From IMG/VR virus record IMGVR_UViG_2737471864_000007, positions 1 through 18,204 of that record: 18,204 nt of DNA; one strand, given 5' to 3'. Within the stretch, counting starts at the first letter, position 1. Every line of letters starts with the position of its first letter. The notes below the pieces were generated by a model. That model did no database searches. It worked only from the letters and a program-made list of their open reading frames with translations, and was not told the DNA's origin. Of the stretch, positions 1-14,301 are shown one piece after another. Both the position numbers and the translations under genes were made by a program. Origin of the DNA: a virus. Lineage: Duplodnaviria; Heunggongvirae; Uroviricota; Caudoviricetes.

Positions 1-1446
1 ATGAAAATTGAAGCCGTTTTATTCGATTTAGATAACACGTTAGCATCAACAAGTAAGCTAAAAGATATTAGAGAGCGTGGGGCTTATGATGAAATAACAG
101 AAGAATTACTATCAACAGTTAAACCATATAAAGGTACCAAAGAATTACTAGAAAATCTGATTTCAAAAGGTATAAAAACAGGTGTCGTAACTAATTCAAG
201 TAAACGTTATGCAGAAAAAATAATTTCACATTTAAATTTACCAAATTTCGGTACTGTGGTGACATATACTGATGTAGGTTCATCAGGGATGAAACCAAAT
301 CCTACTGGTATTAATTTAGCATTAAAAAATCTAGGAATCTCAAATCCGGAACGGGTCATTTATATTGGGGACGATTATACAGATATTATTGCTAGTTATT
401 ATGCGGGGGTTATACCGATTGTTCCATCATGGGCATCAAGGACTCCTGTTTCTCAAGTGCCAGCCGCCGTATTAAGCACTGAGTTCCTTATAGATAATAT
501 TGATGAGTATGAGAATATAATTCTCATGGCGGAAAATTGTGCACGACACAATAGCTTTGAATTTGAGCGAAAAAGATTCTACTTTGTACCTTTGGATGAG
601 TCCGCTAATGTAATTCCTTCAAGTGAAACTCTATCTACAATATGTCTTGGACGTTATTTTTCGCAAAAAAGTTTACTTACAACAAAATTACACGATTCGC
701 ATCCATTATCTATTGAGATCGCCAAGAAAGAGTATGACGATAATTATGTGCCTCCAGAGTATTGGGGCGATATTTTAGCGCATGCGGCAGATAATATTCC
801 ATCTTTTTTCCGGGCTACTAAAGGTTTTGATATTGTTACAGTAATACCAGCTAAAAAAGGAAAAAAAGAAAGATTAGAGAGAGTCTTAGAAAATGCGCGA
901 AGTAAAAGCAATTCCAATGCTGCTTTTATAGCTGATCTTTTTGTTTTTAGTGAGGGAGCAAAATCACTTAAGACCTTACCAAAGGATCAGCGTTCGATAG
1001 AAATAGAATCTAGTTTGCATATGAATCCCAAATATAAAGGTACGCTTGAAGGTAAGACCGTATTAATATTTGATGATGTCATTACCACAGGCTCAACCTT
1101 AAAAAGAGCTTATTCATTGTTGAGAGACGAAAACGTTAAACATAGTTTAGGATTATGCTTGGCTAAAACAGTCTCTATATTTGAAGAGGATAGGCTTTGT
1201 CCTGAATGCATGTGTCACATTCTTAAAATAAAGACAAACTCTCTAACGGGTATTCGATTTTGGGGGTGTTCAGGATATAATGATGAATCAGATAAGTGTG
1301 ATTACACTGAAAGTATCGTTGAGAAACAATGCCCTAGCTGTGGTAGAGATATGGTTAAAAAGTATAATAAATGGAAGAGAGTTCGTTTTTTATCCTGTAC
1401 AGGATGGAATAAAGAACCTCGATGCAATTACACTGAGAGTGAGTGA
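1..1446 (+). CDS. shosT: Three-domain protein: N-terminal HAD-family phosphatase-like domain, central type I phosphoribosyltransferase (PRTase) domain, C-terminal tandem topoisomerase-type C4 zinc ribbons; candidate ShosT-like toxin/effector
   Basis: 481-aa ORF starting at window position 1. HAD motif I FDLDNTL at residues 8-14, with later TNS, KPNP and GDDYTD motifs. PRPP-binding loop VLIFDDVITTGSTL. Two C-terminal repeats (CPEC...IRFWGCSGY...CDYTE and CPSCG...VRFLSCTGW...CNYTE) resemble Topo I zinc ribbons. Visibly AT-rich versus the prophage backbone. Symbol is by analogy to the described PRTase + DprA-like ShosTA pair, not a verified match. Confidence 0.8.
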   Translation: MKIEAVLFDLDNTLASTSKLKDIRERGAYDEITEELLSTVKPYKGTKELLENLISKGIKTGVVTNSSKRYAEKIISHLNLPNFGTVVTYTDVGSSGMKPNPTGINLALKNLGISNPERVIYIGDDYTDIIASYYAGVIPIVPSWASRTPVSQVPAAVLSTEFLIDNIDEYENIILMAENCARHNSFEFERKRFYFVPLDESANVIPSSETLSTICLGRYFSQKSLLTTKLHDSHPLSIEIAKKEYDDNYVPPEYWGDILAHAADNIPSFFRATKGFDIVTVIPAKKGKKERLERVLENARSKSNSNAAFIADLFVFSEGAKSLKTLPKDQRSIEIESSLHMNPKYKGTLEGKTVLIFDDVITTGSTLKRAYSLLRDENVKHSLGLCLAKTVSIFEEDRLCPECMCHILKIKTNSLTGIRFWGCSGYNDESDKCDYTESIVEKQCPSCGRDMVKKYNKWKRVRFLSCTGWNKEPRCNYTESE

Positions 1447-2429
1447 TGTTGACAATATCTCCAGACACAGAAAAATTGTTAACACTTAGTGCCCTTAAAG
1501 GAGTGGGTACTAAGTCGTTATCTAGTTTAGGCATGCTCAAAGACTTTTCTAGTTTATCTCTTGAGGAGTTGGTGAGATTATTGGGGGTTAAGGAATTAGC
1601 TTCCGATGATTTTTTAGTGGCTAGAGATTTCGCAAGAAAGAATATTGATATAGCTCATGCTAAAAATCATTCTATAATTTCATTTTTTGATGAATGTTAC
1701 CCTGATACATTAAAGGTTACTAGCGATAGACCTGCAATACTTTATTGTGCTGGTAACATTGATTGTCTGCGTAATAAATGTTTGGCGGTAATTGGTACCC
1801 GTGAACCCACTCTACATGGTGAAACGATTGCAAAAAATATCACCAAGTGGTTCACCAAAAAAGGTTGGACCATTGTAAGTGGCTTGGCTAAAGGTGTTGA
1901 TTCAATTGCTCATACCTCCGCTATTGAAAACCAAGGTAAAACAATAGCAGTCATGGCTCAGGGGTTGGAAAAAATTTATCCCAGAGAGAATAAAAAACTC
2001 GCAATGGATATTATTAGTACAGGAGGAGTATTAATTTCGGAATATGCCTATGGAAGTCATACATTTCGTAATAACTTTGTAGAGCGTGATAGAATACAGG
2101 CAGGATTATCAGCTGGGGTTTTAATGGTTCAATCTGACTTAAAAGGTGGTAGTCTGCATGCATCTCGCTCAGCAGTAAATTATGGAAGATATCTTGTTAT
2201 TCCCAATCAGTCCAGAAGAGATATTCTTAATAGCGAGCCTAAAATACAGGCTAATCTTGCATTTATGAGTGGTGATTATTATTTAATTAGATCATTATTG
2301 AAAGTTAATGGAGATATAAGTAAATCTTTAATAATTATGGAAAGCAGTAACGATTACCTTAAGGTTGAAGAGCAATTGTACGATGCCCTTCATTCATTAC
2401 ATAATCAGTATAATGGTTTTGATTTTTAA
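1446..2429 (+). CDS. shosA: DprA/Smf-like Rossmann-fold DNA-binding protein; candidate ShosA-like antitoxin/partner
   Basis: ATG at 1446 overlaps the upstream stop by 1 nt (TGATG); the ORF track starts at an in-frame GTG at 1443. DprA-like core AVIGTREPT...IVSGLAKGVDSIAHTSAI...TIAVMAQGLEKIYPREN...ISEYAYG...F..RDRIQAGLS...VLMVQSDLKGGSLHASRSA...GR.LVIP. N-terminal region is helix-hairpin-helix-like. AT-rich. Confidence 0.8.
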   Translation: MLTISPDTEKLLTLSALKGVGTKSLSSLGMLKDFSSLSLEELVRLLGVKELASDDFLVARDFARKNIDIAHAKNHSIISFFDECYPDTLKVTSDRPAILYCAGNIDCLRNKCLAVIGTREPTLHGETIAKNITKWFTKKGWTIVSGLAKGVDSIAHTSAIENQGKTIAVMAQGLEKIYPRENKKLAMDIISTGGVLISEYAYGSHTFRNNFVERDRIQAGLSAGVLMVQSDLKGGSLHASRSAVNYGRYLVIPNQSRRDILNSEPKIQANLAFMSGDYYLIRSLLKVNGDISKSLIIMESSNDYLKVEEQLYDALHSLHNQYNGFDF

Positions 2430-2494
2430 GATAATTATATTGGGTTAGTTGTTAATGACACATTAATACTCCTTTTTCTTCGGTAGCCTCCTTT

Positions 2495-3622
2495 TTAGAA
2501 GGTTACCGTTATCCAATTTTTACCTCGATCATCTCGATATTTAGCTGTCTGGTTTAGAGACTTGTGGCCAAGCAATTTCTGAGTATCAATACCTTGACCT
2601 CCGTAGAGACGTTCGGACAAGGAACGTTGTTCGTGGAATGTCGCTGGAGTACCATCACCCCAATCAATTCCTGCTAAATCTCTCGCTTTACTAAAATTCA
2701 TCGTCAATGTATTGGCTGTAACCTGCGCGCCACGTTCAGCCTGTGAAGTAGTACGAAAAAAATGTACAAGGTATGGGCTGACTACATAGTCACGACAGCG
2801 GGCTACTACATCGCGCAAACTCCAGTTGATCGCATTGAGACGCAGGGAAAGCGGGATGGCGATTTTGCTACCGGTTTTTTCCTGGATGACATGGAGATGA
2901 TCATCCCAAATATCGCTAAATTTCATACGCGAGATATCACCTAACCTCTGGCCGGTAACCAGTGCTAACAGCATGGCATTCCCCATATAACGATGACTGG
3001 CATCTGCGATATCAAAGATTTTTTGCCATTCTTCAAGACTTAACCGTTGTCGGGTAATTTTTCTTCTGGGCTGTTTGGTCGCTAATGCTGGATTATAGCC
3101 TGGAGGGACTTCCCCGTAGTGTTGTGCCTCCTTGAATACATCAATTAGAACGGAGCGGACTACTTGCGCCATCCTCGGTTGCCCAGCAGTGATATACTCG
3201 TCAAGCAATTGTGCGATATCCCTTACATCAACGGATGAAATTAACTTCATTCCTGCTCGCTCCCTGAGCAAGGACACTGGTTTAGCTTTCTGTTTATAGG
3301 TGTTGAGCTTTATATCACCACTTTTCAGTCTGTCATCCTGGATTGCTTGATAGCGATCTAACCAGGTTGATGTTGTGATTGCTTTTCCTTTGCTGGTTGC
3401 GATCCTGTCACTGATAGCCAGAATCTGCCGGGTTCTTTGCTCAGCCAGGCGTGTATTGGCCTCAGTGGCAATAGCAATGGCTTCCGCTTCGTTTGTGCCC
3501 AAAGAATGGAACTTCCCGGTCACTGGATGCTTATATCGCCAATAGACTTTATTTACTTTTCTGCTATAAAGCGGATACAAGTTCGGGACTGAAACATTAT
3601 TTTTACGTGGTCTGGCTGCCAT
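2495..3622 (-). CDS. int: Tyrosine site-specific integrase, lambda Int family
   Basis: 375 aa. N-terminal arm-binding-like region and C-terminal catalytic region ending HEQRSLSERLYGGQGIDTQKLLGHKSLNQTAKYRDDRG, closely resembling the lambda Int C-terminus including the catalytic Tyr context. Overlaps xis at its 5' end as in lambda. Confidence 0.9.
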   Translation of the reverse strand: MAARPRKNNVSVPNLYPLYSRKVNKVYWRYKHPVTGKFHSLGTNEAEAIAIATEANTRLAEQRTRQILAISDRIATSKGKAITTSTWLDRYQAIQDDRLKSGDIKLNTYKQKAKPVSLLRERAGMKLISSVDVRDIAQLLDEYITAGQPRMAQVVRSVLIDVFKEAQHYGEVPPGYNPALATKQPRRKITRQRLSLEEWQKIFDIADASHRYMGNAMLLALVTGQRLGDISRMKFSDIWDDHLHVIQEKTGSKIAIPLSLRLNAINWSLRDVVARCRDYVVSPYLVHFFRTTSQAERGAQVTANTLTMNFSKARDLAGIDWGDGTPATFHEQRSLSERLYGGQGIDTQKLLGHKSLNQTAKYRDDRGKNWITVTF

Positions 3623-3848
3623 TACTTAAAATCCTCTGTAGAATAATGGAATCACTTTTCTTGATGACAGGAGTAACTAACTCCCCAACTAACTCTGCGT
3701 CCTCACGCACTCGCCATAGTCGACCTTGTTTCATTGCCGGTGGACAAAATAAATTCTGCTTAGCATAACGACGCAATGTGGACACACTTGGAGGATTACT
3801 CCTAAATTTTTCCGCAGCCCATTCCTCAAGTGTCAGCATTTGAAGCAT
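3603..3848 (-). CDS. xis: Excisionase (Xis, lambda-like)
   Basis: LTLEEWAAEKF...VSTLRRYAKQNLFCPPAMKQGRLWRV parallels lambda Xis (LTLQEWNARQ...TVRRWVRE..IFPPPVKDGREY). Start taken at the ATG at 3848 (GAGGT about 10 nt upstream); alternative in-frame starts at 3863 and 3839. Overlaps int start. Confidence 0.75.
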   Translation of the reverse strand: MLQMLTLEEWAAEKFRSNPPSVSTLRRYAKQNLFCPPAMKQGRLWRVREDAELVGELVTPVIKKSDSIILQRILSNGSQTT

Positions 3849-3903
3849 TTTTGATAACCTCATTTCTTTTGCTACACAACTATTTCACTAGTTAATTTCG
3901 CTG

Positions 3904-4440
3904 TCAGGATTGCTTATGTATCTTATGCAGCTCTTTAAAACGTTCCATAAACATCCCGTAGGCATGGCCCGGAGCCAGTGGAATAACTTTGAATATCTCT
4001 GTTGCCGGGATACCTTCCAGTACTGGCCAGAAAGAGCCATCATCAAGCCCGAGATCGCGGCGTTCGGTTGCCAACATGATGAGATCGGCATATTTCACAG
4101 GTGTACTCATAACCGGGGGTAACCCGTATTTCTCACGGATTACGGCGTCTATTTTTTCTTCCATCCGTTTATAGTCGGGAAGAAGGTGTTTCAGTGGTGC
4201 GGGGATGTCCTGACAATATGCTTCTGTTGCATCATGCATTAACGCTTCAAAAGCAAATTCCTGCGGTACCAGCTGGCTGCAAAGCACCGCATGTTGGGCG
4301 ACGCTGTAGAAGTGTGAAAGATGTCCTGCAAAGCGACAGATATTTGAAAGGGAAACCGCGATATCGTTAATAACGATGTCGTCTTTATTTATCTTGTCAT
4401 AATAAAAATGCTTCCCGGAAAAAGTTTTAATAAATGACAT
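3904..4440 (-). CDS. yfdR: HD-domain phosphohydrolase, YfdR-like (prophage CPS-53/KplE1 family)
   Basis: 178 aa from the ATG at 4440 (GGAGA 6 nt upstream); the track's longer form uses an upstream GTG. HD-type H..HD metal-binding context (ALMHDATEAY). Identity to E. coli K-12 YfdR is from recollection of sequence, size and gene order; needs BLASTP. Confidence 0.75.
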   Translation of the reverse strand: MSFIKTFSGKHFYYDKINKDDIVINDIAVSLSNICRFAGHLSHFYSVAQHAVLCSQLVPQEFAFEALMHDATEAYCQDIPAPLKHLLPDYKRMEEKIDAVIREKYGLPPVMSTPVKYADLIMLATERRDLGLDDGSFWPVLEGIPATEIFKVIPLAPGHAYGMFMERFKELHKIHKQS

Positions 4441-4567
4441 TTTGTTCTCCACGTATATGCGCTGCACCGCGCTGAATTTTGGTTAAAGAAAACCCTCGCC
4501 ATCAGGTGATTATTGAGTCAATTATGTTTCCATAAATGCCCCCGCAGGGGCATTTGCAGTAATGAAA

Positions 4568-5392
4568 TCAGGCGTTGAAAGTACCAATAAAGGTTTTTAC
4601 TTTGCTGTCTTTGAATTTTTCAACTAGCAGATCACGAAATTCGTTAGCCATTTCTTCCTGTACTGCTTCCAGCTGAATAATGCGCTGAACCAGTACAGGG
4701 CGATCACCAGTGATAATGCTGAGTCGTAATTTAAACGGACGTTCTTTCAGGCCTTCAAACGGAACGCATTTAAATTCAAATGCCACTGGCATAATGTCTT
4801 TGGTCTTCGCTTCGACAGACTCCATCAGGGAGCGTTTGCCGCTGAAGTCATTGTCTTCAAAATCAGCAGTCTGGTTCGCTTCAATTGTGATTTTACGGAT
4901 CGCTGCAGCCGCTTTGGTTGCCTGAATGGCGTCACCATTAGCATCAAAGCCCACAAGGTAGTCTGCCCAGTCTTCAATCCATTCTGCCAGTGACTTCTGG
5001 GAGTTACGTTCGCCGTTAACAGACAACAGAGCAGAGAACGGGGCTGTCTTTTTCAGTTTGAGAGTGGCGGTGTTATCTGCGTGACCTGGTTCATCAATAG
5101 TACCCAGGTTAAGTACACTGACGGCACGCATATTATCAGCATCGATAAAGCAGCCGGTGCCTTTATCTGCAAGATCTTTAGAATAACGGGTAAAGTCATC
5201 GATGTTGGCAGTGGAAAGCGCACCACGGAAACGGAAGCGATTTAAATTAAATTTTTCCAGATCATGAATGCGGAAATTCTCAGGCAATGCTACAGCATCG
5301 GCACCAATCTTATTGATAATTTCATTAACACCCTGAGCAGAAATAAGGGCATGGATTTGATTAATTGCGGTTGCGTCTAAGTTCTGAGACAT
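4568..5392 (-). CDS. yfdQ: YfdQ-like protein (DUF2303 family), function unknown
   Basis: 274 aa, ATG at 5392 with GAGGA 8 nt upstream. Size and position between yfdP-like and yfdR-like genes match the K-12 CPS-53 order as I recall it; needs BLASTP. Confidence 0.75.
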
Positions 5393-5457
5393 AATAAGTC
5401 CTCACTATATAAAGATATTCAGTGATGAGATAAATAATCAGTTTATTAATAACGATA

Positions 5458-5820
5458 TTAACGACCTGCTGCGCGGAGTTTTCCGTCAGGCTCACCGGCA
5501 AGAGTCAGTAATTGTCCCTGGTCTTCCTGCAGAATAGTCAGGCGACCACCGCGATTGACATACATCGGCGTTTCTGTGGTGTCTTCTTCGGAAATTTTCC
5601 CGCGGTTAGTCGGGCGAACATATGAGAGTTTGTGTTTGATTTTCACACGGTTCTCATCAAATGGTTCGATTTCCAGGTTGAGTGAGACCTTACCTTTGGT
5701 TTTCGTGTTCATCACACCGGAAGCGACTTCACTGAGAACTGCGCCGATTTTGGTTTCAAATACGCCGCCGTCCAGCTCCCCGATAAATGCCTGCACATCA
5801 GTACTGCGTTCGCTAGCCAT
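5458..5820 (-). CDS. yfdP: YfdP-like hypothetical protein
   Basis: 120 aa starting MASERSTDVQAFIGELDGG at the ATG at 5820, with AGGAG 8 nt upstream. The track's 226-aa form extends into the GC-rich ORF-free segment with an Arg/Cys/Pro-rich, non-protein-like translation, so the extension is rejected. Confidence 0.65.
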   Translation of the reverse strand: MASERSTDVQAFIGELDGGVFETKIGAVLSEVASGVMNTKTKGKVSLNLEIEPFDENRVKIKHKLSYVRPTNRGKISEEDTTETPMYVNRGGRLTILQEDQGQLLTLAGEPDGKLRAAGR

Positions 5821-5870
5821 TTTGCTGCTCCTCATCATATCGACCCTGCAAGGCCGATTAGTTTCTCCAC

Positions 5871-6074
5871 AAAACAGAGAAGAACACCTGCGGTGGCAGC
5901 CGCCCGGATGGATTGAGTTATGAGCCCGTCGTCCGGTGATGTTCTTCTCTGTTTTGTAAAAAGGACGGTACCAGCCGGAAGCAAGGGTACAAGCTGGTAC
6001 CGCCAGGACTACACACAGCATAAAGTTGTGGTGCCGGGTGCCTCCCGGTGCCTGGCGAAGGTTGCACACCAGGC
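5871..6074. other. GC-rich ORF-free segment with multiple perfect inverted repeats; candidate structured RNA or MITE-like element
   Basis: 16-bp perfect inverted repeat AAAACAGAGAAGAACA (5871-5886) / TGTTCTTCTCTGTTTT (5940-5955) around a 53-nt GC-rich spacer. 9-bp perfect stem GGTACCAGC (5967-5975) / GCTGGTACC (5993-6001). 6-bp stem GCCTGG (6050-6055) / CCAGGC (6069-6074). No convincing ORF in any frame. Confidence 0.3.
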
Positions 6075-6219
6075 GGGTGGGTATCCACAGAAGGTCGACT
6101 GTCAGCCTCAACCTTAACCCGCGTGCGCTGAGCCGCATTCACCACAACGCTAAGGATTCTCTCTGGTTGAAAATACTTAGCTGTTATGTGCCTGCTTTTA
6201 GCCACATCAGGCGAGGTGG

Positions 6220-6272
6220 ATCTGGTTATTCCCCAACAATAAGGATTCGGTTAATCTGGTTATCCCCAACAA
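6220..6272 (+). repeat. Two direct repeats ATCTGGTTAT(T)CCCCAACAA, 34 bp apart, just upstream of the ORF at 6289
   Basis: Copies at 6220-6239 and 6254-6272. The associated motif TAAGGATTC also occurs twice (6151-6159, 6240-6248), and CTGGTTGA at 6163-6170 is a partial third copy. Confidence 0.6.
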
Positions 6273-6288
6273 CGCAAAAGGAAAAGAA

Positions 6289-6723
6289 ATGTCCGGTAAT
6301 ATCTATACGCTGTACAAATCCCACTGTGAAAATGTTGGAAAGTATCGGGGCATTGAAATCAGTGGGGTAGTGTCATCAGTCGAAATAAGCAAAGTTGAAT
6401 CAAGAGCAACATTACTTACTCTTCTGGACCTTGTCTTACATGAGCACCGGAAGAAATTCGGCACTCCCTATAATCAGTTGAATGGGAAAAAGGCTCTGGT
6501 TCACCTTATTCTGATGAAGCATCACTGGATGCCAAAACAGATTAATGAGATGAAATTTGATGAACTTCTTCTTTCAATTCAGGATGAACTCACGCTTGAT
6601 AAAATAAGCGTAACCGCCCAGAAATTTTTAGATTATCGAGACTGGAGATCACAAATTCATCACTTTGATGATTTTGACGAAAATGAATGGGATCCTAATT
6701 TGTCTGCACAATATCTAAAGTAG
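6289..6723 (+). CDS. Hypothetical protein, 144 aa, acidic C-terminus; AT-rich gene oriented against the leftward early operon
   Basis: ATG at 6289 with AAGGA 7 nt upstream. Protein-like translation with no recognisable motif. 3' end overlaps the convergent small ORF 6695-6901 by 29 nt. Confidence 0.6.
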   Translation: MSGNIYTLYKSHCENVGKYRGIEISGVVSSVEISKVESRATLLTLLDLVLHEHRKKFGTPYNQLNGKKALVHLILMKHHWMPKQINEMKFDELLLSIQDELTLDKISVTAQKFLDYRDWRSQIHHFDDFDENEWDPNLSAQYLK

Positions 6724-6901
6724 CATCCTGTGATAAAACTGTGATTTCCTGATCCAGTTTTTTTAAGGAGCCTATTGTTTCCTGTCGATAAGACAGCACT
6801 TCACGAAGCTGGTTTATAGCTGCCAGCTTCTTTGTCATCCACTCGTAAATTTCCTCATCTGTGTAGCCAGGCGCGACGATTTTTGGTTCTGTTTTGTGCA
6901 T
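6695..6901 (-). CDS. Small hypothetical protein, 68 aa; first gene of the putative leftward (pL-like) operon
   Basis: ATG at 6901 preceded by a strong GAGGAGGTG Shine-Dalgarno 5-6 nt upstream; the track's longer form starts at a TTG. Helical-looking, not Arg-rich, so not an obvious N homolog. Confidence 0.55.
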   Translation of the reverse strand: MHKTEPKIVAPGYTDEEIYEWMTKKLAAINQLREVLSYRQETIGSLKKLDQEITVLSQDATLDIVQTN

Positions 6902-6947
6902 TTCACACCTCCTCAAGTTATCAGTTACTTGTTGATGGGGACCAGAT

Positions 6948-6959
6948 TGTTAAAGAGCT
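6948..6959 (-). promoter_or_regulatory. boxA-like element GCTCTTTAACAA; candidate antitermination (nut-like) site on the leftward transcript
   Basis: Minus-strand 12-mer matches the rrn/lambdoid boxA consensus TGCTCTTTAACAA at 12 of 13 positions. Lies between the OL-like block and the first leftward ORF. No convincing boxB hairpin identified. Confidence 0.4.
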
Positions 6960-6960
6960 A

Positions 6961-6984
6961 AGCGTCCTGTAGGGCGCTTTTTTG
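6961..6984 (+). terminator. Rho-independent terminator (plus strand)
   Basis: AGCGTCC-TGTA-GGGCGCT stem (7 bp, one G-U pair) followed by TTTTTT. The same hairpin on the minus strand has a C-A mismatch and no U-tract, so it is directional. Confidence 0.55.
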
Positions 6985-7058
6985 TTGCTAACGAATCATC
7001 CTGGACTTCATATGCCCCAGGCGGCTACTTCGTGGGCGTCCTGCCTGTTCGTTGTTTT

Positions 7059-7120
7059 AACACCTTTAAGTTGTAATTTAGTTGTGGCTTTGAATATTGT
7101 CAACAACTTTATGTGGTTTG
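7059..7120. promoter_or_regulatory. OL-like operator/promoter region
   Basis: Block AACACCTTTAAGTTGTAATTTAGTTGTGG (7059-7087) plus ACAACTTTATGT (7104-7115). Both recur in the cI-cro intergenic region; contains AAGTTGT/ACAACTT inverted half-sites. Confidence 0.5.
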
Positions 7121-7166
7121 AACGAGTAGCCAAGGAGTGCAAGGATTATCAAAAAAAGGAGGTTGT

Positions 7167-8057
7167 ATGGAAGACGCGCTTTACGCTTTTAATTACACAC
7201 AGAACCGGGACAAGTTATTTGCTAACTTGATTAGCATCATTGATGGAATCATTGCAGATGGAGTTGTCCGTGAAGAGGAGGTTCTTTACTTAGATACATG
7301 GTTACTTGAAGCAAAGCAGATTATCAATAATGGAGTTATAAAAAGTCTATCAGCACGGGTGTCGGATATTCTTGCGGATGGAATAATCACATCAGAAGAA
7401 CGTGATGACCTTAAAAATAGCCTTCTCCAAATACAGAGGGAAATTCTTGATATCCCTGAAATTGATTTTTACTCCAAGGATGTAGATGTCCATTTACTTA
7501 ATGGACTATGTAAAGGATTAATTGCTGATCGGAACTTAACTCAAGAAGAAATAAGATATCTTAATTGGTGGCTTGAGCAAAATGGAGCTTTGAAGAACAA
7601 CTACCCAGGAAAAAAACTTTATGCACTTGTAAAGGAAATTCTTAAAGATGGGGTTATTACTGAAGATGAGAGTTTAACTCTACATAAGGCATTAGTAGAC
7701 TTCACAGGATGTGACTTGGAAAGTGGGGTGGTGGATGGTTTGGCGACCAGGCTGCCTATTGATGTAGGGGCTTCGATAGAGTTAGAGGGTAAAACCTATT
7801 GTCTTACAGGCACTTTTGTTGCAGGAAAGAGAGCCGTAGTTGAAAATTTGATTAAAAATGCTGGTGGGAACATCAGTAGTGGAATTACTCAAAAGTTGGA
7901 TTTTTTAGTAATTGGGACGCTTTCCTCCCGTGATTGGAAATTCTCAAGTCACGGAAGGAAGATCGAAAAAGCTATATCTTATAGGGATGATAATGGTGCA
8001 AAACTTAAAATTATTTCTGAAGAAATGCTTTTCGATGCATTACCAAGTTCGCGATGA
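7167..8057 (+). CDS. TerB-like helical-repeat protein with C-terminal BRCT domain; AT-rich cargo gene between OL and cI
   Basis: ATG at 7167 with AGGAGG 4 nt upstream; the track's form starts at a GTG at 7137. Four repeats of the pattern (A/K)DG.I(T/R).EE...L (IADGVVREEEVLYL, LADGIITSEERDDL, IADRNLTQEEIRYL, LKDGVITEDESLTL). C-terminal GKTYCLTGTF...GGNISSGITQKLDFLVIG...GRKIEKA...GAKLKIISEEMLFDAL resembles the LigA-type BRCT fold. Convergent 18-nt overlap with the cI 3' end. Confidence 0.75.
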   Translation: MEDALYAFNYTQNRDKLFANLISIIDGIIADGVVREEEVLYLDTWLLEAKQIINNGVIKSLSARVSDILADGIITSEERDDLKNSLLQIQREILDIPEIDFYSKDVDVHLLNGLCKGLIADRNLTQEEIRYLNWWLEQNGALKNNYPGKKLYALVKEILKDGVITEDESLTLHKALVDFTGCDLESGVVDGLATRLPIDVGASIELEGKTYCLTGTFVAGKRAVVENLIKNAGGNISSGITQKLDFLVIGTLSSRDWKFSSHGRKIEKAISYRDDNGAKLKIISEEMLFDALPSSR

Positions 8058-8726
8058 CCAGAATACCCTACCTATAACATGAATTCTGGCTCGTCTATCT
8101 TCAAAGGTGAGTATTTCATCTGGGTACTCATCTTTGTTGAAGCTTCTAAGAATCAAGCCACCGTCAGGTAAGTTGATAAGTATTTTAACCCTTAGCAATA
8201 CACCATCTCGTACGGCATAAAGATCGCCATCACGAATAGGAACGGTTTGAGAAATATCAACGGCAACAAGATCTCCATTATTGAGAACCGGTAATAAACT
8301 GTTCCCCCATATTTTTACGATCTTGGCATTAGATGCACATACGCCAGATTTTCTCAAATCTGCTCTTCTTAACGGAAACCAGTCAATAGCTGATTCAACT
8401 ATTTCAGCCAGACATCCGTTACCTGCCGATAACTCGACATCTAAAACAGGAATGTTTACGAAAATATCGGGGTCTAATGCGGTGCTTTCTGCTTCTTTTA
8501 CAACAAGATCAGGTATGGATGCGTTATCTTCAATACCAAGTTGTAACCACTTTTGTGATACACCTAAAACTTTTGCAATTTCTTTAATTTTGCGCGGTTG
8601 TAGAGTTTCGCCATTCTCTATTTTGGCTACAGATTGTTGTGAAAGTCCAATTTTTTCAGCTAGTTGAGCTTGGCTCATGCCAGCTTTCTCTCTACCTATC
8701 TTTAATCGTTCTGCCAGTGTTTTCAC
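8040..8726 (-). CDS. cI: CI-like prophage repressor (XRE-type HTH + LexA/S24 peptidase-like autocleavage domain)
   Basis: 228 aa. N-terminal HTH (LAERLKIGREKAGMSQAQLAEKIGLSQQSVAKIENGE) and C-terminal S24-like region (GNSLLP...). GTG start at 8726 with a GAGAGGGA SD-like sequence. Divergent from cro. Confidence 0.85.
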   Translation of the reverse strand: MKTLAERLKIGREKAGMSQAQLAEKIGLSQQSVAKIENGETLQPRKIKEIAKVLGVSQKWLQLGIEDNASIPDLVVKEAESTALDPDIFVNIPVLDVELSAGNGCLAEIVESAIDWFPLRRADLRKSGVCASNAKIVKIWGNSLLPVLNNGDLVAVDISQTVPIRDGDLYAVRDGVLLRVKILINLPDGGLILRSFNKDEYPDEILTFEDRRARIHVIGRVFWSSRTW

Positions 8727-8755
8727 AACATATCCCTCTCTTTTTTGATGAGGTT

Positions 8756-8850
8756 ACAACTTTATGTTTTAGCTTTCCAACACCTAAAAGTTGTGATAAA
8801 AGTTGTTAATGTTGTATTCTTGCAACTCGTAACAACTTAACTACCAAAAA
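8756..8850. promoter_or_regulatory. OR-like operator/promoter region between cI and cro
   Basis: ACAACTTTATGT (8756-8767) and block AACACCTAAAAGTTGTGATAAAAGTTGT (8779-8806) match the OL-like region; a further ACAACTT at 8832-8838. Divergent cI and cro starts flank it. Confidence 0.55.
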
Positions 8851-8861
8851 AGGAGAAAGCT

Positions 8862-9110
8862 ATGACACCTGAGCAATTAGCCTTATCGGAGGCAATCGCT
8901 CTGGCTGGTGGTCAATCAGAATTGGCTCGGAAGCTCACAGCCAGCAGCGGTCATTTAGTAAAGCAACAACATGTCTGGAACTGGTTGAACAGAGAAAAGC
9001 GTCCCCCTGCAAAGCTCTCGATATTCATTGAAAAGACCACTGGCATATCAAAAGAAAAATTACGTCCAGATATTTTTCAAAAGATTAAAGATTCATCAGC
9101 TGAAAAGTAA
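8862..9110 (+). CDS. cro: Cro-like HTH regulator (YdaS/Cro family)
   Basis: 82 aa, ATG at 8862 with AAGGAG upstream. HTH-like GGQSELARKLTASSGHLVKQQ. Position immediately right of OR and divergent from cI. Confidence 0.75.
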   Translation: MTPEQLALSEAIALAGGQSELARKLTASSGHLVKQQHVWNWLNREKRPPAKLSIFIEKTTGISKEKLRPDIFQKIKDSSAEK

Positions 9111-9132
9111 CCACAGTTTTAAGGAGATAGCC

Positions 9133-9690
9133 GTGGGTAAGCATCACTGGAAAATAGAAAAACAGCCTGAGTGGTACGTGAAAGCTGTCAGAAAAACTAT
9201 CGCGGCGTTGCCGGGTGGTTACGCTGAAGCCGCTGACTGGCTGGATGTAACAGAGAACGCTTTATTCAACCGCCTTCGTGCAGATGGCGATCAGATTTTT
9301 CCGCTGGGATGGGCAATGGTTTTACAGCGTGCTGGTGGCACTCACTTCATTGCTGATGCTGTGGCGCAGTCTGCAAATGGCGTATTTGTGTCTCTTCCTG
9401 ACGTCGAGGATGTGGACAACGCCGATATTAACCAGCGTCTGCTGGAAGTCATTGAACAGATCGGCAGTTATTCAAAACAGATTCGTTCAGCAATCGAAGA
9501 CGGTGTAGTGGAACCGCATGAGAAGACAGCAATTAACGACGAGCTGTATCTCTCAATTTCGAAGCTGCAGGAGCATGCAGCACTGGTCTACAAAATCTTT
9601 TGCATTTCAGAAAGTAATGACGCCCGCGAGTGTGCAGCTCCGGGCGTCGTGGCGTCGATTGCTTCTGGTTGTGGAGAAACTAACGCATGA
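9133..9690 (+). CDS. CII-like regulatory protein (YdaT-like family)
   Basis: 185 aa from the GTG at 9133 (AAGGAG 6 nt upstream). The track's longer form starts inside cro and is rejected. Position after cro matches the Rac-type racR/ydaS/ydaT arrangement as I recall it; family assignment tentative. Confidence 0.6.
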
Positions 9691-10025
9691 ACAGTTTAAC
9701 AACACACTACCGTCGCTCGCAACTGATTGCGCTTCCTGTACCGGGTGGAAAAGCGAAGGTGGAATATTGCTATGCAGTGAATGTACCAGGTGACAGGGAA
9801 ATTGTAACCCACAGCTTTGCAGAGTGGGCTGTGGGTGATTTCAACCGGCAGAAGGAGACAGTCCTTTGCGACAAGTTAACCGCTGGTTCAAAGATCACTA
9901 CGGAGTGCCCGTCAGAGTCATTCGTTGGGAGCCGGAAACACAACGGGTTATCTACCTCCGCGAAGGTTATGAGCATGAATGCTTCAGTCCGCTCGAACAG
10001 TTTCGTCGTAAATTCAGGGAAATAG
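9687..10025 (+). CDS. Hypothetical protein; possibly frameshifted or overlapped by an alternative-frame ORF (9866-10045)
   Basis: ATG overlaps the cII-like stop (ATGA). The C-terminal third of the translation looks non-protein-like, while a second frame (TTG at 9866 after AGGAG, stop at 10043-10045) reads ...[58 protein letters not shown]. Confidence 0.35.
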
Positions 10026-10034
10026 AGGTCGGTC

Positions 10035-10304
10035 ATGAGCACTAAATTAACCGGCTATGTATGGGATGGTTGCGCTGTATCAGGCATGAAGTTATCCAGT
10101 GTGGCAATTATGGCCCGCCTGGCTGATTTCAGTAATGACGAAGGTGTGTGCTGGCCATCAATTGAAACCATTGCCCGTCAGATTGGCGCGGGGATGAGTA
10201 CCGTCAGAACGGCTACCGTGGCATTTGAAGAGAAGTATGGCTCCCAGCTGGAGCTGATATTTCGTTTTATCGATCGTGCGCTGGCAATAGGCGTACTGGC
10301 GTAA
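10035..10304 (+). CDS. Short HTH protein resembling the N-terminal domain of phage/plasmid replication initiators (HTH_36-like); probable remnant of the replication module
   Basis: 89 aa. KLSSVAIMARLADFSNDEGVCWPSIETIARQIGAGMSTVRTA matches the typical pattern of this winged-helix class (...ALADHANDDG.CWPS.ETLA...G.S.RTV.RA). Ends directly before the Q-like gene. Confidence 0.55.
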   Translation: MSTKLTGYVWDGCAVSGMKLSSVAIMARLADFSNDEGVCWPSIETIARQIGAGMSTVRTATVAFEEKYGSQLELIFRFIDRALAIGVLA

Positions 10305-10317
10305 GTGGAGACGCAAA

Positions 10318-10896
10318 ATGATTAATCCTTCCGAAGTTGGTAAATCCGGGGAAATGGCACGACTACGTACACTGGAAAGTGTATGGATACAGGGCAAACT
10401 GCGTATGTGGGGGCGCTGGTCATTCATCGGCGGCGGCTCAGGCGGCAATATGTTTAACCAGTTGCTGGCCTCCGGGAAAATCACCAAGACAGCCATCAAT
10501 GACGCTTTACGTCGCATGAAGAAGTCAGGCCTGACAAAACCAGAGCTCGAAGCGTTCTTTCGTGAAATTATCGATGGCAAAAATAAGACAGGCATTTCGT
10601 TCTGCTCAGATGATGAGGGTGTATGCATTGATGGCGTTATCGCGGCTGTGCTGATCTCAAATGGTCATAACGGATTGTTTGATGTGCTACTGGACAGATA
10701 CCGCTATCGCAAGAGCAAACGTCTCATGGCAGAGCAACTTCAAAAGCGCCATCCAGAATGGTGCTACATGACCTGCCGCCGCCGAATTGATTCCTGGCTA
10801 AGTTTGGCAGAATTCATGCTTTACGCACCAATGTGTGATGCATTCGGCACAAATAGCAGCAGATTTAAGTTGCAATGTGAGCCAGGAGGTGCTTAA
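10318..10896 (+). CDS. Putative late-gene antiterminator (Q-like) with Cys pairs
   Basis: 192 aa. Position immediately upstream of a terminator and the lysis cassette. Two Cys pairs (CSDDEGVC, CYMTC) are compatible with a zinc-binding Q-type protein. Assigned by position and architecture, not by recognised homology. Confidence 0.5.
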   Translation: MINPSEVGKSGEMARLRTLESVWIQGKLRMWGRWSFIGGGSGGNMFNQLLASGKITKTAINDALRRMKKSGLTKPELEAFFREIIDGKNKTGISFCSDDEGVCIDGVIAAVLISNGHNGLFDVLLDRYRYRKSKRLMAEQLQKRHPEWCYMTCRRRIDSWLSLAEFMLYAPMCDAFGTNSSRFKLQCEPGGA

Positions 10897-10946
10897 ATTG
10901 TGTTACGCTCGGGACGCAAAAGCGAACAGAGCAACAAACATTAAGA

Positions 10947-10970
10947 ACCCGCCAGCGTGCGGGTTTTTTG
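10947..10970 (+). terminator. Rho-independent terminator downstream of the Q-like gene (tR'-like)
   Basis: ACCCGC-CAGCGT-GCGGGT stem followed by TTTTTT. Confidence 0.6.
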
Positions 10971-11009
10971 TTATCATTACCTTTTAAACTTCTAATGGAA
11001 GGTAATGAT

Positions 11010-11582
11010 ATGTGGTTAGGGATTCCTTTTATCTATGTTCAGGAACGGCTGGCAGACACAATTAGCATCAGTAAAATACCATCTATTTCTATAGAATCTT
11101 CATTCTCCTCCGAAACGATTATAGCCGCATTTATTAGTGGATTGGTTCCAGCACTGATATCTTTGTATGTGATTAGACAAAATAACGAGTCTGTCCGATA
11201 TCAACAAAAGCAAGAGAATAAAAGACATTATTCTGCGCATTTAAGGGTGGTAGTTAGCGAGTATGCATACCAACTTAATAAAGTTAAAGAGATACATGCC
11301 GAATGGGTTTCTGTTAGCACAACAATGATCCAATATAAGCTAACAAGCTTAGAAGAAAAAATGTCTGAGGCTCTATTAGAACTGGAAAGATTTAAAGTTA
11401 GCTTGTTAATTTCTATTCCTGATGATGAAGATGGTGCATTGTTTAAGAAATCAATAAATACCATCTCAGAAAAGCTATCTTCATTAATTAAGGGGAGGCA
11501 TATATCAATGGTTGATGGAATGGGATGGGCTGGCCTTTATATGTCATTCATTTCAGATGCTAATAAGTATCTAAATAAATAA
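11010..11582 (+). CDS. AT-rich moron: membrane-anchored helical protein, function unknown
   Basis: ATG at 11010 with GGAAGG about 7 nt upstream; alternative in-frame ATG at 10995; the track's form uses a TTG at 10968 inside the terminator. One predicted TM helix (IIAAFISGLVPALISLYVI) followed by a charged helical region. Flanked by terminators on both sides. Confidence 0.6.
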   Translation: MWLGIPFIYVQERLADTISISKIPSISIESSFSSETIIAAFISGLVPALISLYVIRQNNESVRYQQKQENKRHYSAHLRVVVSEYAYQLNKVKEIHAEWVSVSTTMIQYKLTSLEEKMSEALLELERFKVSLLISIPDDEDGALFKKSINTISEKLSSLIKGRHISMVDGMGWAGLYMSFISDANKYLNK

Positions 11583-11604
11583 AATATATTTTATTAAAAT
11601 ATCA

Positions 11605-11633
11605 AAAGCCACTTAATTGTGGCTTTTTGTTTT
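11605..11633 (+). terminator. Rho-independent terminator downstream of the moron
   Basis: AGCCAC-TTAATT-GTGGCT stem followed by TTTTT G TTTT. Confidence 0.6.
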
Positions 11634-11674
11634 CCCTCTTTTTGAGAGGACTCACAGCAATAAGAGGGGGCTAA

Positions 11675-12070
11675 ATGTCCGATCCTGTTTCTGGCACTAC
11701 GGTTGCCGCTGGTGGCCTTATGGGAGCCAGTGTTTTTGGTATCGCAACTGGTATTGATTATGGCGTGGTGTTTGGCGCTTTCGCAGGAGCTGTGTTCTAC
11801 GTAGCGACAGCAGCAAACATCAGTAGGATGAAGTTGGTTGGCTATTTCGTGACATCGTTTATTGTCGGCGTTCTTGGCGCTGGGCTTGTTGGTTCGTACC
11901 TTGCCAAATGGACAGGCTACAGCGACAGGCCACTTGATGCTCTCGGCGCAGTGGCAGTAGCTGCGTTGGCCATCAAACTTCTTACCTTCATCAACAGTCA
12001 GGATCTAGGAAGCCTGTTCAGTATGCTTTCGCGATTGCGTGGAGGAGGGACCAGCAATGGTAACAAGTGA
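11675..12070 (+). CDS. Putative holin (multi-TM small membrane protein)
   Basis: 131 aa, Gly/Ala-rich hydrophobic segments consistent with 3-4 TM helices. AAGAGGGGG SD upstream. First gene of the lysis cassette. Confidence 0.65.
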   Translation: MSDPVSGTTVAAGGLMGASVFGIATGIDYGVVFGAFAGAVFYVATAANISRMKLVGYFVTSFIVGVLGAGLVGSYLAKWTGYSDRPLDALGAVAVAALAIKLLTFINSQDLGSLFSMLSRLRGGGTSNGNK

Positions 12071-12338
12071 TCCTTCAGCGATGATCAATGCGGGTATTTG
12101 CGCGGTCATTGTAATTGCTCTGATGTTTTACCAACGTGGCGGTGCCAGACATCGCCCGATAGTTTCTCTTCTCGCTTATTTCACGGTGCTGGTTTATGCC
12201 AGCATCCCGTTCCGCTATCTGTTCGGCCTCTACCAGGAATCACACTGGCTGGTGGTCATCGTTAACATCCTGATATGCGCCGCCGTGCTATGGGCTCGGG
12301 GAAACGTGGCGCGTCTTATTGATGCTCTGAGGCACTAA
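12057..12338 (+). CDS. Second lysis-cassette membrane protein (holin/antiholin-like)
   Basis: About 93 aa from the ATG at 12057 (GGAGGAGGGA SD 6 nt upstream); the track's form starts at a GTG at 12039. Three hydrophobic segments. Overlaps the holin stop and the endolysin start. Confidence 0.55.
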   Translation: MVTSDPSAMINAGICAVIVIALMFYQRGGARHRPIVSLLAYFTVLVYASIPFRYLFGLYQESHWLVVIVNILICAAVLWARGNVARLIDALRH

Positions 12339-12952
12339 TGAACCAATCACAATTTCAACAGGCGGCTGTTATTAGCGCCGGGTTAGCTGCGCGCTGGTTT
12401 CCGCACATTGATGCGGCGATGAAGGAATTCGGCATTACAGCACCAGCGGATCAGGCAATGTTTATCGCTCAGGTAGGCCATGAGTCGATGGGGTTTAGCG
12501 CCGTAGTTGAAAATTTTAACTACACACCATCTGCGCTGGTGGCGACGTTCGGAAAGAGGATCACACAGCAGCAGGCTGATGCCCTTGGCAGAACATCCGG
12601 ACATGCAGCTCGTCAGGATGCTATTGCCAATCTGGTGTATAGCAACCGACTGGGTAACAAAGCACCCGGTGATGGCTGGAAATATCGTGGTAGAGGATTA
12701 ATTCAAATCACTGGCCTCCATAATTATCGCATCTGTGGCGCGGAGCTGAAGTTAGATCTGGTGACTTCACCTGAACAACTTGAACAGGAACTACAGGCCG
12801 CGCGCTCAGCTGCATGGTTCTACACCTCTAAAGGCTGCATGATCTACGGTGCCGATATTAATCGTGTTACGCGTATCATTAACGGCGGTCTGAACGGTAT
12901 TGAGGATCGTAAAGTCCGATACAACAAGGCGCGGGCGGCGCTGCTGGTATGA
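12338..12952 (+). CDS. Endolysin, glycoside hydrolase family 19 (chitinase-like lysozyme)
   Basis: 204 aa. GH19-type motifs FIAQVGHESMGF...NF.Y...YRGRGLIQITGLHNY. Start overlaps the upstream stop (TAATG). Confidence 0.8.
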   Translation: MNQSQFQQAAVISAGLAARWFPHIDAAMKEFGITAPADQAMFIAQVGHESMGFSAVVENFNYTPSALVATFGKRITQQQADALGRTSGHAARQDAIANLVYSNRLGNKAPGDGWKYRGRGLIQITGLHNYRICGAELKLDLVTSPEQLEQELQAARSAAWFYTSKGCMIYGADINRVTRIINGGLNGIEDRKVRYNKARAALLV

Positions 12953-13341
12953 AGATGAGTTATTGGGCGCTCATTTTAACGTTTATTGCTTGTGTTGCTG
13001 GTGGTCTTGTCTGGTCAGCGAATCACTATCATGGAAAGTTTCTGGAGGAGCAGAAGCGTGCTGACGCTGCGGAACAGCGAGCTGATTCTACTGAAGCTAT
13101 CACCGCGAATGTCCTGCGAACTATGGCAATAACGAACATCATTCAGGAGGCGAATCAACATGCAAAACAGCAGATCGCACTGGAGTCACAGAGAACCCAG
13201 GAAGATATCAAAGTGGCTATTGCGAATGATGATTGCGCTTCACGTCCTGTGCCTGCTACCGCTGCTGACCGGTTGCGGAAGTACGCGGACAGTTTACGTG
13301 AGCGATCCGGTGGCACCCCTGCCAGCCAGCCTGACTTCTGA
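12949..13341 (+). CDS. Rz-like inner-membrane spanin (i-spanin)
   Basis: 130 aa. N-terminal TM (WALILTFIACVAGGLVW) followed by a charged coiled-coil-like region. Start overlaps the endolysin stop (ATGA). Confidence 0.7.
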   Translation: MKMSYWALILTFIACVAGGLVWSANHYHGKFLEEQKRADAAEQRADSTEAITANVLRTMAITNIIQEANQHAKQQIALESQRTQEDIKVAIANDDCASRPVPATAADRLRKYADSLRERSGGTPASQPDF

Positions 13342-13498
13342 TACTCCAGTACCGTTTATACCCAATCCGCTGACGTATGGTACCAGTCTGGAGTTGAATG
13401 TTGCTCTATTGTCAGCCTTGGGACAATGTAATTTTGATAAAACTGGAATCAGAAATATTGAATCACGGCGCGCTATTTTGCATTCGAAAGACAAATAG
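13226..13498 (+). CDS. Rz1-like outer-membrane lipoprotein spanin (o-spanin), overlapping the 3' part of the Rz-like gene in another frame
   Basis: Lipobox LLTGC after a short signal peptide (MMIALHVLCLLPLLTGC). Pro-rich mature region. Starts inside the Rz-like gene and extends past its stop. Exact start (13226 or 13229) uncertain. Confidence 0.6.
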   Translation: MMIALHVLCLLPLLTGCGSTRTVYVSDPVAPLPASLTSDTPVPFIPNPLTYGTSLELNVALLSALGQCNFDKTGIRNIESRRAILHSKDK

Positions 13499-13866
13499 CT
13501 CGAGTTATATTTTTCATTATCGTTGCGAATGCTCCTAATAAAGCTGTGTATTATGGTAATTTTATAAAGCCTATGGGTTTAAGTTCAGATGCTAGCGTTT
13601 TTATAGCGTAATGTAGCAGCTTACATAAAATATGCATCGTGATTAACTATTAGGCCAACCTTTTGGACCAATATGAAAGTGGAAGTTTATACAAATCGTT
13701 TGTCGATGATTAAACATGTGTCTAGTAGCGCTAGTCATGAACAGGTTTATTACGTATCATTTTGTGTAGATTATCGAGAGTACAACTAGTAGAGCAGCTA
13801 ATCTTTAGATAGTGCCAGTGATGTTCACTTGCGATAAACTAACCTTTTCATTCAGTGGAGGTTATT

Positions 13867-14301
13867 ATGTGGCATACATTACTTAACTGGCCTTGGGGAA
13901 CTGTGTGGTCAGCTGTATCGGCTTTAGGTTCAATTGTAACTGTTACATTAGGTTTTTGGGCAATGAATGTTTGGCGGCGACAGGAGGCTCTGAAGGCCAA
14001 AATGGCTCTGAAAATGGCAGTGGCTGATTATTCAAATGCATTATCACAACTACCTTTATCTCTTAGTCGTAATGTTCGTATTGAAAAAAGGGCCGAGCTA
14101 CGAGAGTTAAATCATAAATTAAATGCTGTTAATAATGCTTTTTTGATATGCGAACATATGTTGGAAAAATACCCACGTGTAAACAGCGGTTGTCGTTCTT
14201 TATCTGTTGCCCACAAAGAATATATTAGAATGAGAGATAATAGTATTCAGGCGAAACATATTTGTCATAATATTCTTTCAGAGCAGTTTGTATTCAAATG
14301 A
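13867..14301 (+). CDS. AT-rich moron: membrane-anchored helical protein, function unknown
   Basis: About 144 aa from the ATG at 13867 (GGAGG 6 nt upstream). N-terminal TM (WSAVSALGSIVTVTLGFWAMNVW) then a helical, Lys/Arg-rich region. Preceded by about 360 bp of AT-rich non-coding DNA. Confidence 0.55.
   Translation: MWHTLLNWPWGTVWSAVSALGSIVTVTLGFWAMNVWRRQEALKAKMALKMAVADYSNALSQLPLSLSRNVRIEKRAELRELNHKLNAVNNAFLICEHMLEKYPRVNSGCRSLSVAHKEYIRMRDNSIQAKHICHNILSEQFVFK

Follow-up and report, generated by a model that had tools for sequence, protein, structure and literature searches.

A gene for twin helical units and a BRCT domain beside the cI repressor of an e14-like prophage

What is the gene that faces the cI repressor in an e14-like prophage of Escherichia coli? 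The DNA analyzed here is a stretch of 18,204 nucleotides (IMG/VR virus record IMGVR_UViG_2737471864_000007, positions 1 to 18,204), referred to below as the window. It is an e14-like lambdoid prophage with integration adjoining icd in E. coli, and the gene in question, here called brct, lies in its immunity region between the left operators and cI. It is best described as belonging with the repressor-adjacent accessory genes of prophages, built on a very widespread and uncharacterized domain combination that has been annotated only generically so far. What such a gene might do for the prophage is considered step by step below, from the protein and its regulation to its relatives in phages and bacteria.

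The brct gene and its product

The gene, the parts of its product and the neighboring genes of the immunity region are as follows.

7157 to 7163, plus strand: Shine-Dalgarno sequence AAGGAGG, 3 nt before the brct ATG and kept in related loci
7167 to 8057, plus strand: brct gene, with ATG at 7167 and a stop codon ending at 8057, encoding a cytoplasmic protein of 296 amino acids with two helical units and then a BRCT domain
7188 to 7460, plus strand: helical unit 1 (approximately residues 8–98), a four-helix bundle with two DG-x-[IV]-x3-E helix-loop-helix motifs (D31/E38 and D71/E78)
7464 to 7736, plus strand: helical unit 2 (approximately residues 100–190), a duplicate of unit 1, also a four-helix bundle with two motifs
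7764 to 8042, plus strand: BRCT domain of the LigA/RFC1 type (approximately residues 200–292)
8040 to 8726, minus strand: cI-type repressor gene, encoding 228 amino acids with HTH_3 and Peptidase_S24 domains, its 3' end overlapping brct
8862 to 9110, plus strand: gene in the cro position, with a YdaS-type HTH, at the right end of the immunity cassette

The GC content of brct is 38.0%, compared with 45.3% for the window. The gene converges with cI, and the two ORFs overlap by 18 nt (8040–8057). An earlier note on this DNA, made from its letters alone, had described an AT-rich gene with a strong Shine-Dalgarno sequence, placed between an OL-like operator and cI on the opposite strand and overlapping it by 18 nt; the base composition, the AAGGAGG 3 nt before the ATG, the ORFs, and the operators and PL promoter described below all agree with this. 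In RefSeq the product is WP_000389078.1, 'BRCT domain-containing protein'. It matches PHROG 3989 over its full length (E 1.5e-128, residues 2–295 on profile positions 2–295 of 296), and that family is annotated as 'unknown function'. The matching stretch in strain PS1Thumoskin9 is annotated with intE and xisE, and further on with the BRCT protein, an 'XRE family transcriptional regulator', ymfL and others.

The C-terminal BRCT domain

The earlier reading of the C-terminus as a BRCT-like domain is supported by the Pfam score, the predicted fold and the profile matches. Residues 206–290 match Pfam PF00533 with 29.0 bits against a cutoff of 21.3, and 76 of 79 family members match Pfam BRCT as well. 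An AlphaFold2 model from an alignment of 79 diverse relatives (pLDDT 94.3, pTM 0.91) has nine helices and, after them, a BRCT fold of the beta-alpha type, in which helices flank a parallel sheet of four strands; the twin acidic bundles are packed rigidly on the BRCT domain. The best profile matches among solved structures were the BRCT domain of RFC1 (2e-08) and the BRCT domains of LigA (6e-07 to 3e-06).

In the alignments with RFC1 and LigA, the TG and R of those BRCT domains fall on T214-G215 and R222 of the brct protein. Conservation across the family is complete or at least 90% at T214, G215, R222 and K265. From its place at the start of the helix formed by residues 264–276 in the model, K265 is probably equivalent to the basic residue of the phosphate pocket. 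In RFC1 and in tandem BRCT domains the TG, R and K positions form this pocket; the RFC1 BRCT domain binds 5'-phosphorylated ends of double-stranded DNA, and the LigA BRCT domain helps to bind nicked DNA. On this evidence, the brct protein is a non-enzymatic protein with a BRCT domain of the LigA/RFC1 class that retains the T-G...R residues of the phosphate pocket. A near-invariant loop, SRDW-x3-S-x-GRK, is specific to the brct family.

Two enzymatic identities were rejected. NCBIfam models for LigA, the NAD-dependent ligase, score 20–28 bits against cutoffs of 369–1051, over the BRCT part only, and Pfam finds none of the ligase domains (adenylation, OB, Zn, HhH) in the brct protein. The match to DNA polymerase III epsilon, the label of some homologs, is limited to the BRCT region and is far below the cutoffs. 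The labels 'NAD-dependent DNA ligase' and 'DNA polymerase' that some homologs carry are misannotations.

The N-terminal helical units

Four copies of a helical repeat motif had been noted in the N-terminal part of the protein, and they are found at residue 30 (ADGVVREEE), residue 70 (ADGIITSEE), residue 120 (ADRNLTQEE) and residue 160 (KDGVITEDE). They are not a chance resemblance, because they fall within two tandem copies of one unit of ca. 90 residues – hhalign of unit 1 against unit 2 gave a probability of 99.7% and an E of 1.3e-26. Short forms of the family (ca. 210 amino acids) retain unit 2 and match residues ca. 100–290 of the query.

The same motifs had been called TerB-like, and this holds for the short motif but not for the domain. 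If it held for the domain, the protein would be a TerB-type stress or metal-sensing domain fused to BRCT, within a Ter-like stress or defense family. The motif does resemble the TerB/EF-hand loop, and sub-threshold Pfam matches were found among the 79 family members to TerB (17 members), DUF533 (7) and EF-hand_5 (5). The brct protein itself, however, has no match to Pfam TerB (PF05099) at E<=1. The top TerB score in the family is 23.1 bits against a cutoff of 24.4, over 39 residues (profile positions 9–47 of a domain of ca. 118 residues), and when the N-terminal alignment was compared by hhalign with E. coli DjlA, a protein that Pfam TerB matches at 2.1e-08, the probability was 0.7% over 21 aligned columns. 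A TerB fusion is thus very improbable, and is essentially excluded. Since the DG-x-[IV]-x3-E motif corresponds to the second half of an EF-hand loop, these acidic motifs could conceivably bind metal.

Operators and predicted regulation

The regulatory elements on the two sides of brct and cI are as follows; no strand is assigned to the operators.

7060 to 7074: operator OL-b, ACACCTTTAAGTTGT, over the predicted PL start site
7075 to 7103, minus strand: PL-like leftward early promoter between the two left operators (TTGACA at 7103–7098, 17 nt, TAAATT at 7080–7075)
7103 to 7117: operator OL-a, ACAACTTTATGTGGT, abutting the PL −35 on one side and the predicted brct −35 on the other
7118 to 7146, plus strand: predicted brct promoter, found by eye (−35 TTGAAC at 7118–7123, 17-nt spacer, extended −10 TGc-AAGGAT at 7138–7146)
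8756 to 8794: OR operators ACAACTTTATGTTTT (8756–8770) and ACACCTAAAAGTTGT (8780–8794), between cI and cro

The operator-like 15-bp pattern ACAMC-N5-GTKKT has exactly four copies in the 18.2-kb window (at 7060, 7103, 8756 and 8780), two upstream of brct and two between cI and the gene in the cro position. In shuffled sequence the mean was 0.27 copies and none of 200 shuffles reached four, for a pattern that was defined only after inspection of the sequence.

No rightward promoter upstream of brct was called by a standard sigma-70 scan. Diverged loci keep TTGA(A/T)N right after OL-a, the 17-nt spacing and TGnAAGGAT, while the letters of the spacer vary. These conserved elements read as a weak brct promoter of the extended −10 type, with its start site near 7153; TGnAAGGAT was read as that extended −10, though it could be another kind of signal. 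Its core, AAGGAT (7141–7146), precedes the brct start by ca. 20 nt and recurs, with few exceptions, in the enterobacterial loci examined (L003–L008 and L039–L094). Three enterobacterial loci have the variants AAAGAT, AAATAT or GAGGAT, and the adjoining bases vary.

A repressor dimer on OL-a would be centered at about −43 of the predicted promoter and would touch its −35. The geometry matches that of lambda cI at OR2 relative to PRM. Judged by this geometry and by the operon membership of relatives, brct is probably expressed under the control of cI in the lysogen; alternatively, a repressor on OL-a could give repression.

Two further elements were seen in this region. On the leftward transcript, shortly after PL, the E. 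coli and Citrobacter koseri cassettes share a conserved block of ca. 35 nt (7015–7050), which Serratia keeps in part. The block includes a terminator-like hairpin at 7032–7048 and could be a nut-like site, an attenuator or a small RNA. On the other side of cI, the palindrome GTTGTATTCTTGCAAC at 8811–8826 overlaps the predicted PR −10 (by eye). Its half-sites are reversed in order relative to the ACAAC-N5-GTTGT operators, and it may serve Cro or another regulator.

Distribution and inheritance with the cI allele

The brct gene is present in 47 of 5,426 complete E. coli genomes (0.9%). The cI allele of the window is present in 48 E. coli genomes, brct in 47. Phages that share the flanks, including SfIV, SfII and SfV, have neither brct nor the matching cI, and no cI more than 45% identical to that of the window was found among the sequenced phages of the collection searched. 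This distribution is that of an accessory gene and not of a lambdoid core gene, as had been proposed.

Relatives of the brct protein with 56–83% identity are found in Citrobacter, Serratia, Klebsiella, Enterobacter, Salmonella and others. Their prophages differ in integrases and replication modules, and each has a convergent cI gene of 228 codons that overlaps by 9–18 nt. In the enterobacterial clade 132 loci were scanned, and at 122 of them a cI-like gene lies within 150 nt in convergent orientation; in the remaining ten a cI-like gene was undetected or further off. All 122 loci with a cI-like gene detected at that distance are convergent, and most distant relatives lie directly downstream of cI, so the placement next to the repressor, which the earlier note had called rex-equivalent, is conserved. 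The conserved block begins ca. 100 nt to the left of OL and takes in both operators, the leader and the Shine-Dalgarno sequence. Because this block spans the operators and leader and because brct travels with the cI allele, the unit of inheritance is the whole immunity cassette, OL-brct-cI-OR-cro.

Hybrid cassettes were also seen. In L080 and L079 (IMG/VR 2585427967_000001 and 2882168469_000002) the BRCT protein is 71–72% identical to that of the window and cI only 50–57%, a mismatch that indicates recombination between brct and cI. In L080 (BRCT 72%, cI 50%) the two genes do not overlap and are separated by 28 nt.

Relatives in other phages

A search of 1.84 billion representative proteins found 2,857 clusters of the family at E<=1e-3 and 1,596 at E<=1e-10 (clusters at 50% identity). 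The architectures are two units and BRCT (ca. 295 amino acids), one unit and BRCT (ca. 210 amino acids), and three kinds of fusion. The first fusion is a DEDDh exonuclease with one unit and BRCT; the second is one unit and BRCT followed by HhH and BRCT, a LigA-type tail; and in the third the module is at the C-terminus of a protein of 2,042 amino acids with an SF1 helicase, an MTES_1575 nuclease (REase) and DUF3320.

On viral contigs there were 64 non-redundant relatives with less than 55% identity, 58 of them with enough upstream flank. More than half of these (33 of 58) lie downstream of an S24 cI gene on the same strand within 1 kb, often at 5–30 nt. Four more are convergent with an S24 cI within 1 kb, and at five others a gene within 1 kb encodes some other HTH protein, upstream on the same strand in four cases. 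The tally is conservative – K139 was scored as a miss despite its annotated cI. Pseudomonas phage phi1 has the repressor and then the BRCT gene, and the arrangements cI-brct and cI-orf-brct-int were found for a 45%-identical metagenomic relative and a short form.

BRCT relatives with 50–54% identity adjoin cI proteins that have no BLAST similarity to the cI of the window. Simple co-inheritance of a single cI-brct pair was therefore ruled out as the origin of the adjacency. It has instead been re-created or kept across repressor lineages, and by these comparisons BRCT evolves more slowly than the neighboring cI. Slower divergence would be expected if the target is conserved – a DNA structure, for instance, or host machinery – and less so for a partner specific to the phage.

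The recurrence of S24 repressors beside brct also bears on another explanation, that the protein modulates the lysis-lysogeny decision – it would sense DNA damage, in the form of nicks, gaps or 5'-phosphate junctions, and raise or lower the threshold of RecA-dependent self-cleavage of the S24 cI, and other phages would be unaffected. The link to these LexA-like repressors is found again in lambdoid, P2-like and D3-like phages, brct is strictly co-inherited with cI in E. coli, and BRCT domains are classic modules of the DNA-damage response. The gene of Sulfurimonas phage SNW-1, divergent from cII at the place expected for a repressor, could also be counted in favor. In a 2026 preprint, cI- and BRCT-encoding modules of Roseobacter prophages are listed as presumed DNA-damage-responsive regulators, a passing suggestion only (PMC13345283). 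Against this, BRCT and cI do not closely co-evolve, as seen in the unrelated cI lineages and in hybrids such as L080; the majority of members in bacterial genomes lack a cI in the vicinity; the nuclease fusions and the linkage to ligA described below point to DNA transactions and not to the control of a repressor; and sibling phages with S24 repressors manage without brct. Such a modulator is possible but rather unlikely.

The SNW-1 gene (L014, 3429–4486) is a short form labeled 'DNA polymerase', and it is followed by a thermonuclease gene.

Relatives outside phages

Bacterial genomes were scanned with one representative per species, using a degenerate DNA pattern for DW-x5-GRKIE-x-A. Members were found in the Gamma-, Beta-, Delta- and Epsilonproteobacteria, Bacteroidota, Verrucomicrobiota, Planctomycetota, Nitrospirota, Chlorobiota, Fibrobacterota and others. 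The scan gave 96 loci with a unit and BRCT. A cI-like gene lies within 500 nt at 16 of them and an integrase within 3 kb at 3, while at 12 the flank is too short to judge.

Six of the upstream neighbors among the scanned loci are NAD-dependent DNA ligases. The short form comes directly after ligA, in the same orientation and −8 to 42 nt away, in L293 (154–3016), L244 (4053–7658), L326 (5629–8847), L321 (3271–6431), L249 (3892–6639, Phycisphaeraceae) and L252 (7–1988, Akkermansia). This linkage spans the Planctomycetota, Verrucomicrobiota and Pseudomonadota, and from gene order the form with one unit and BRCT looks like an operon partner of ligA. A conserved partner gene for the family as a whole was sought and rejected – neighbors are heterogeneous except for ligA, cI and a set of SAR86-type loci that are close relatives of one another, with a TonB receptor upstream and Band_7 downstream. 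The large size of the family, its chromosomal members and its linkage to ligA in some bacteria broaden the range of plausible functions beyond defense cargo.

A ligase partner suggests a further possible role, as an aid to establishment of the prophage's own DNA. Made with cI and Int after infection, the protein would bind nicks and ends of the phage DNA and would recruit or stimulate host LigA, or shield the ends from RecBCD, and in this way promote circularization and integration. The short forms directly downstream of ligA in several phyla, and the variants in which the module is fused to a LigA-type HhH-BRCT tail, are consistent with this. So are the cI-brct-int operons of K139, L268, L305 and L329, of a kind that serves both establishment and maintenance. 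Close relatives of the prophage that lack brct are viable phages, however, so any such help is dispensable, and the idea leaves unexplained a promoter that is embedded in OL and faces cI. Timing is also a difficulty, in that injected DNA of the lambda type is circularized before phage proteins build up. An establishment role is considered unlikely.

A possible role in the lysogen

The common denominator of the domain and of the repressor, ligA and nuclease contexts appears to be the recognition of DNA discontinuities. The role that is tentatively favored, and that may well prove wrong, is that of a protein, expressed in the lysogen, which binds nicks or 5'-phosphate ends and acts against foreign DNA in exclusion or defense. 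It would be produced alongside cI and would recognize 5'-phosphorylated discontinuities – nicks, gaps or ends, for example the annealed cos ends or the replication intermediates of an incoming phage. It could then block the sealing, circularization or replication of the foreign DNA, either by sitting on these sites or by engaging the ligase or nuclease machinery of the host through its helical units. The outcome would be superinfection exclusion or defense on top of repressor immunity.

Defense is favored because brct occupies the slot of rexAB and bstA (PMC8585504), because it is dispensable and patchily distributed, because orf2 of phage K139 stands before an exclusion gene, glo, and because a fused relative is a defense candidate. 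The BRCT matches to RFC1 and LigA, the linkage to repressors, the slower divergence of BRCT than of cI, the short forms beside ligA and the conserved geometry of promoter and operator also count in its favor.

Several observations weigh against a role in defense. The literature searched contained no functional study of the brct family, the PADLOC support is a partial match to a candidate, and the protein has no effector domain. In bacterial genomes, 65 of the 96 loci have no detectable cI or integrase nearby, a number that is an upper bound because the repressor models were trained on proteobacterial cI proteins; this suggests that the family is not intrinsically one of phage defense. Regulation gives further reasons for caution. 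In this clade brct runs toward cI, and its predicted promoter, which agrees only weakly with the consensus, went uncalled in the scan. Bound at OL-a, cI could repress instead of activate, which would make brct an early lytic gene. The scan recognized no intrinsic terminator between the converging genes, so antisense or mutual interference is possible and could keep brct expression low in the lysogen.

A broader idea takes in both the phage and the bacterial contexts. In temperate phages of many lineages, a reader of nicks or 5'-phosphate ends that is conserved in bacteria – a BRCT adaptor associated with LigA and bearing twin acidic helical bundles – may have become part of the cI switch, where it would act as a new kind of non-enzymatic sensor that couples the state of the DNA (foreign ends, damage) to immunity or induction by way of the ligase and repair machinery of the host. 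This is speculative and is held with low confidence.

The role of brct matters beyond this prophage. Repressor-adjacent prophage genes such as rexAB and bstA have repeatedly proved to have immunity functions, and brct is widespread, with more than 1,500 clusters, and is tied to repressors of unrelated sequence in lambdoid, P2-like and Pseudomonas phages. The ligA operons in several phyla offer a biochemical handle, in nick or 5'-phosphate recognition and in LigA itself. Solving the role of brct would either add a mechanistically new single-protein prophage defense or reveal an unrecognized input to SOS and cI, and would also correct many database labels of DNA ligase or DNA polymerase.

Other features of the prophage

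A ShosTA defense pair lies just outside int, at 1–2429 of the window on the plus strand, with a GC content of 35%. ShosA (DprA-like, 1443–2429) was matched by PADLOC at 5e-80 and ShosT (PRTase) at 1.8e-14. The ShosT of the window has an extra N-terminal HAD-phosphatase domain and a C-terminal zinc ribbon of the Top1 type. The sibling prophage of strain PS1Thumoskin9 carries a HEPN/Toprim-associated gene at the corresponding int-proximal spot where the window has ShosTA, and this spot therefore looks like a cargo hotspot.

Two ORFs on the minus strand also deserve comment. The ORF at 3904–4467 (187 amino acids) has a borderline match to YfbR-like 5'-deoxynucleotidase (25.6 bits, with a cutoff of 25.9). 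The ORF at 5458–6138 (226 amino acids) looks over-extended; related loci have a YfdP-family gene of 120–184 codons there, adjoining a DUF2303 gene.

Comparison with known systems

The earlier note named no described defense system with this architecture, and the searches bear it out, given the 'unknown function' of PHROG 3989 and a PADLOC result limited to a partial match to one candidate. The known proteins and systems nearest to brct differ in the part that is shared – a domain, a whole protein or a genomic slot.

The BRCT domains of LigA and RFC1 share the fold and the aligned TG and R, and are the best matches of solved structure. The brct protein differs from both in its SRDW-x3-S-x-GRK loop and in its N-terminal twin helical bundle. 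The likeness to TerB/DjlA-N (PF05099) is that both are helical and have a repeated acidic aDG-x-[ilv]-x3-E motif, but no domain-level similarity was seen by HMM or by profile-profile comparison, and a structure search brought up no clear match.

PDC-S48, a PADLOC candidate, has a C-terminal module of one unit and BRCT that is matched by the brct protein (model positions 239–377 of 411, E 2.4e-07). In P0189 and P0221 this module follows an N-terminal DEDDh (RNase_T) exonuclease, which the brct protein does not have. Membership in PDC-S48 was rejected, as the exonuclease half is missing and only the C-terminal third of the model is matched. PDC-S48 is itself only a candidate system and is not mentioned in the literature searched.

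A true homolog from a known phage is Orf2 of K139 (NP_536630), with 32.6% identity over 95% of the length and the same two units and BRCT. Identical copies are found in Kappa, VPUSM 8, 919TP and VcP032. Like brct, K139 orf2 adjoins cI in the lysogeny module, where the annotated lysogenic PL operon is cI-orf2-glo-int and orf2 comes directly before glo. The difference is in the phage and in the orientation: K139 is a P2-like myovirus, and its orf2 is co-directional and co-transcribed with cI, not convergent. No function is given for orf2 in the records and papers covered, which did not include the original K139 descriptions of 1999 and 2002.

A likeness in genomic position is to RexAB of lambda and BstA of Salmonella phage BTP1, which lie in the same slot as brct, with the repressor gene on one side and the leftward early promoter on the other. 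This slot, next to a highly transcribed promoter, is a hotspot of mosaic diversity, and RexAB and BstA are examples of the accessory, lysogen-expressed, abortive-infection genes that are often found downstream of prophage repressors (PMC8585504). The brct protein has no homology to either – PADLOC gave no Rex or BstA match, and Pfam found no KilA-N or Rex domains. RexAB is a two-gene system of a sensor and a membrane channel, and BstA has a KilA-N domain. RexAB and BstA are encoded on the strand of cI, while brct is convergent with cI and has a predicted promoter of its own.

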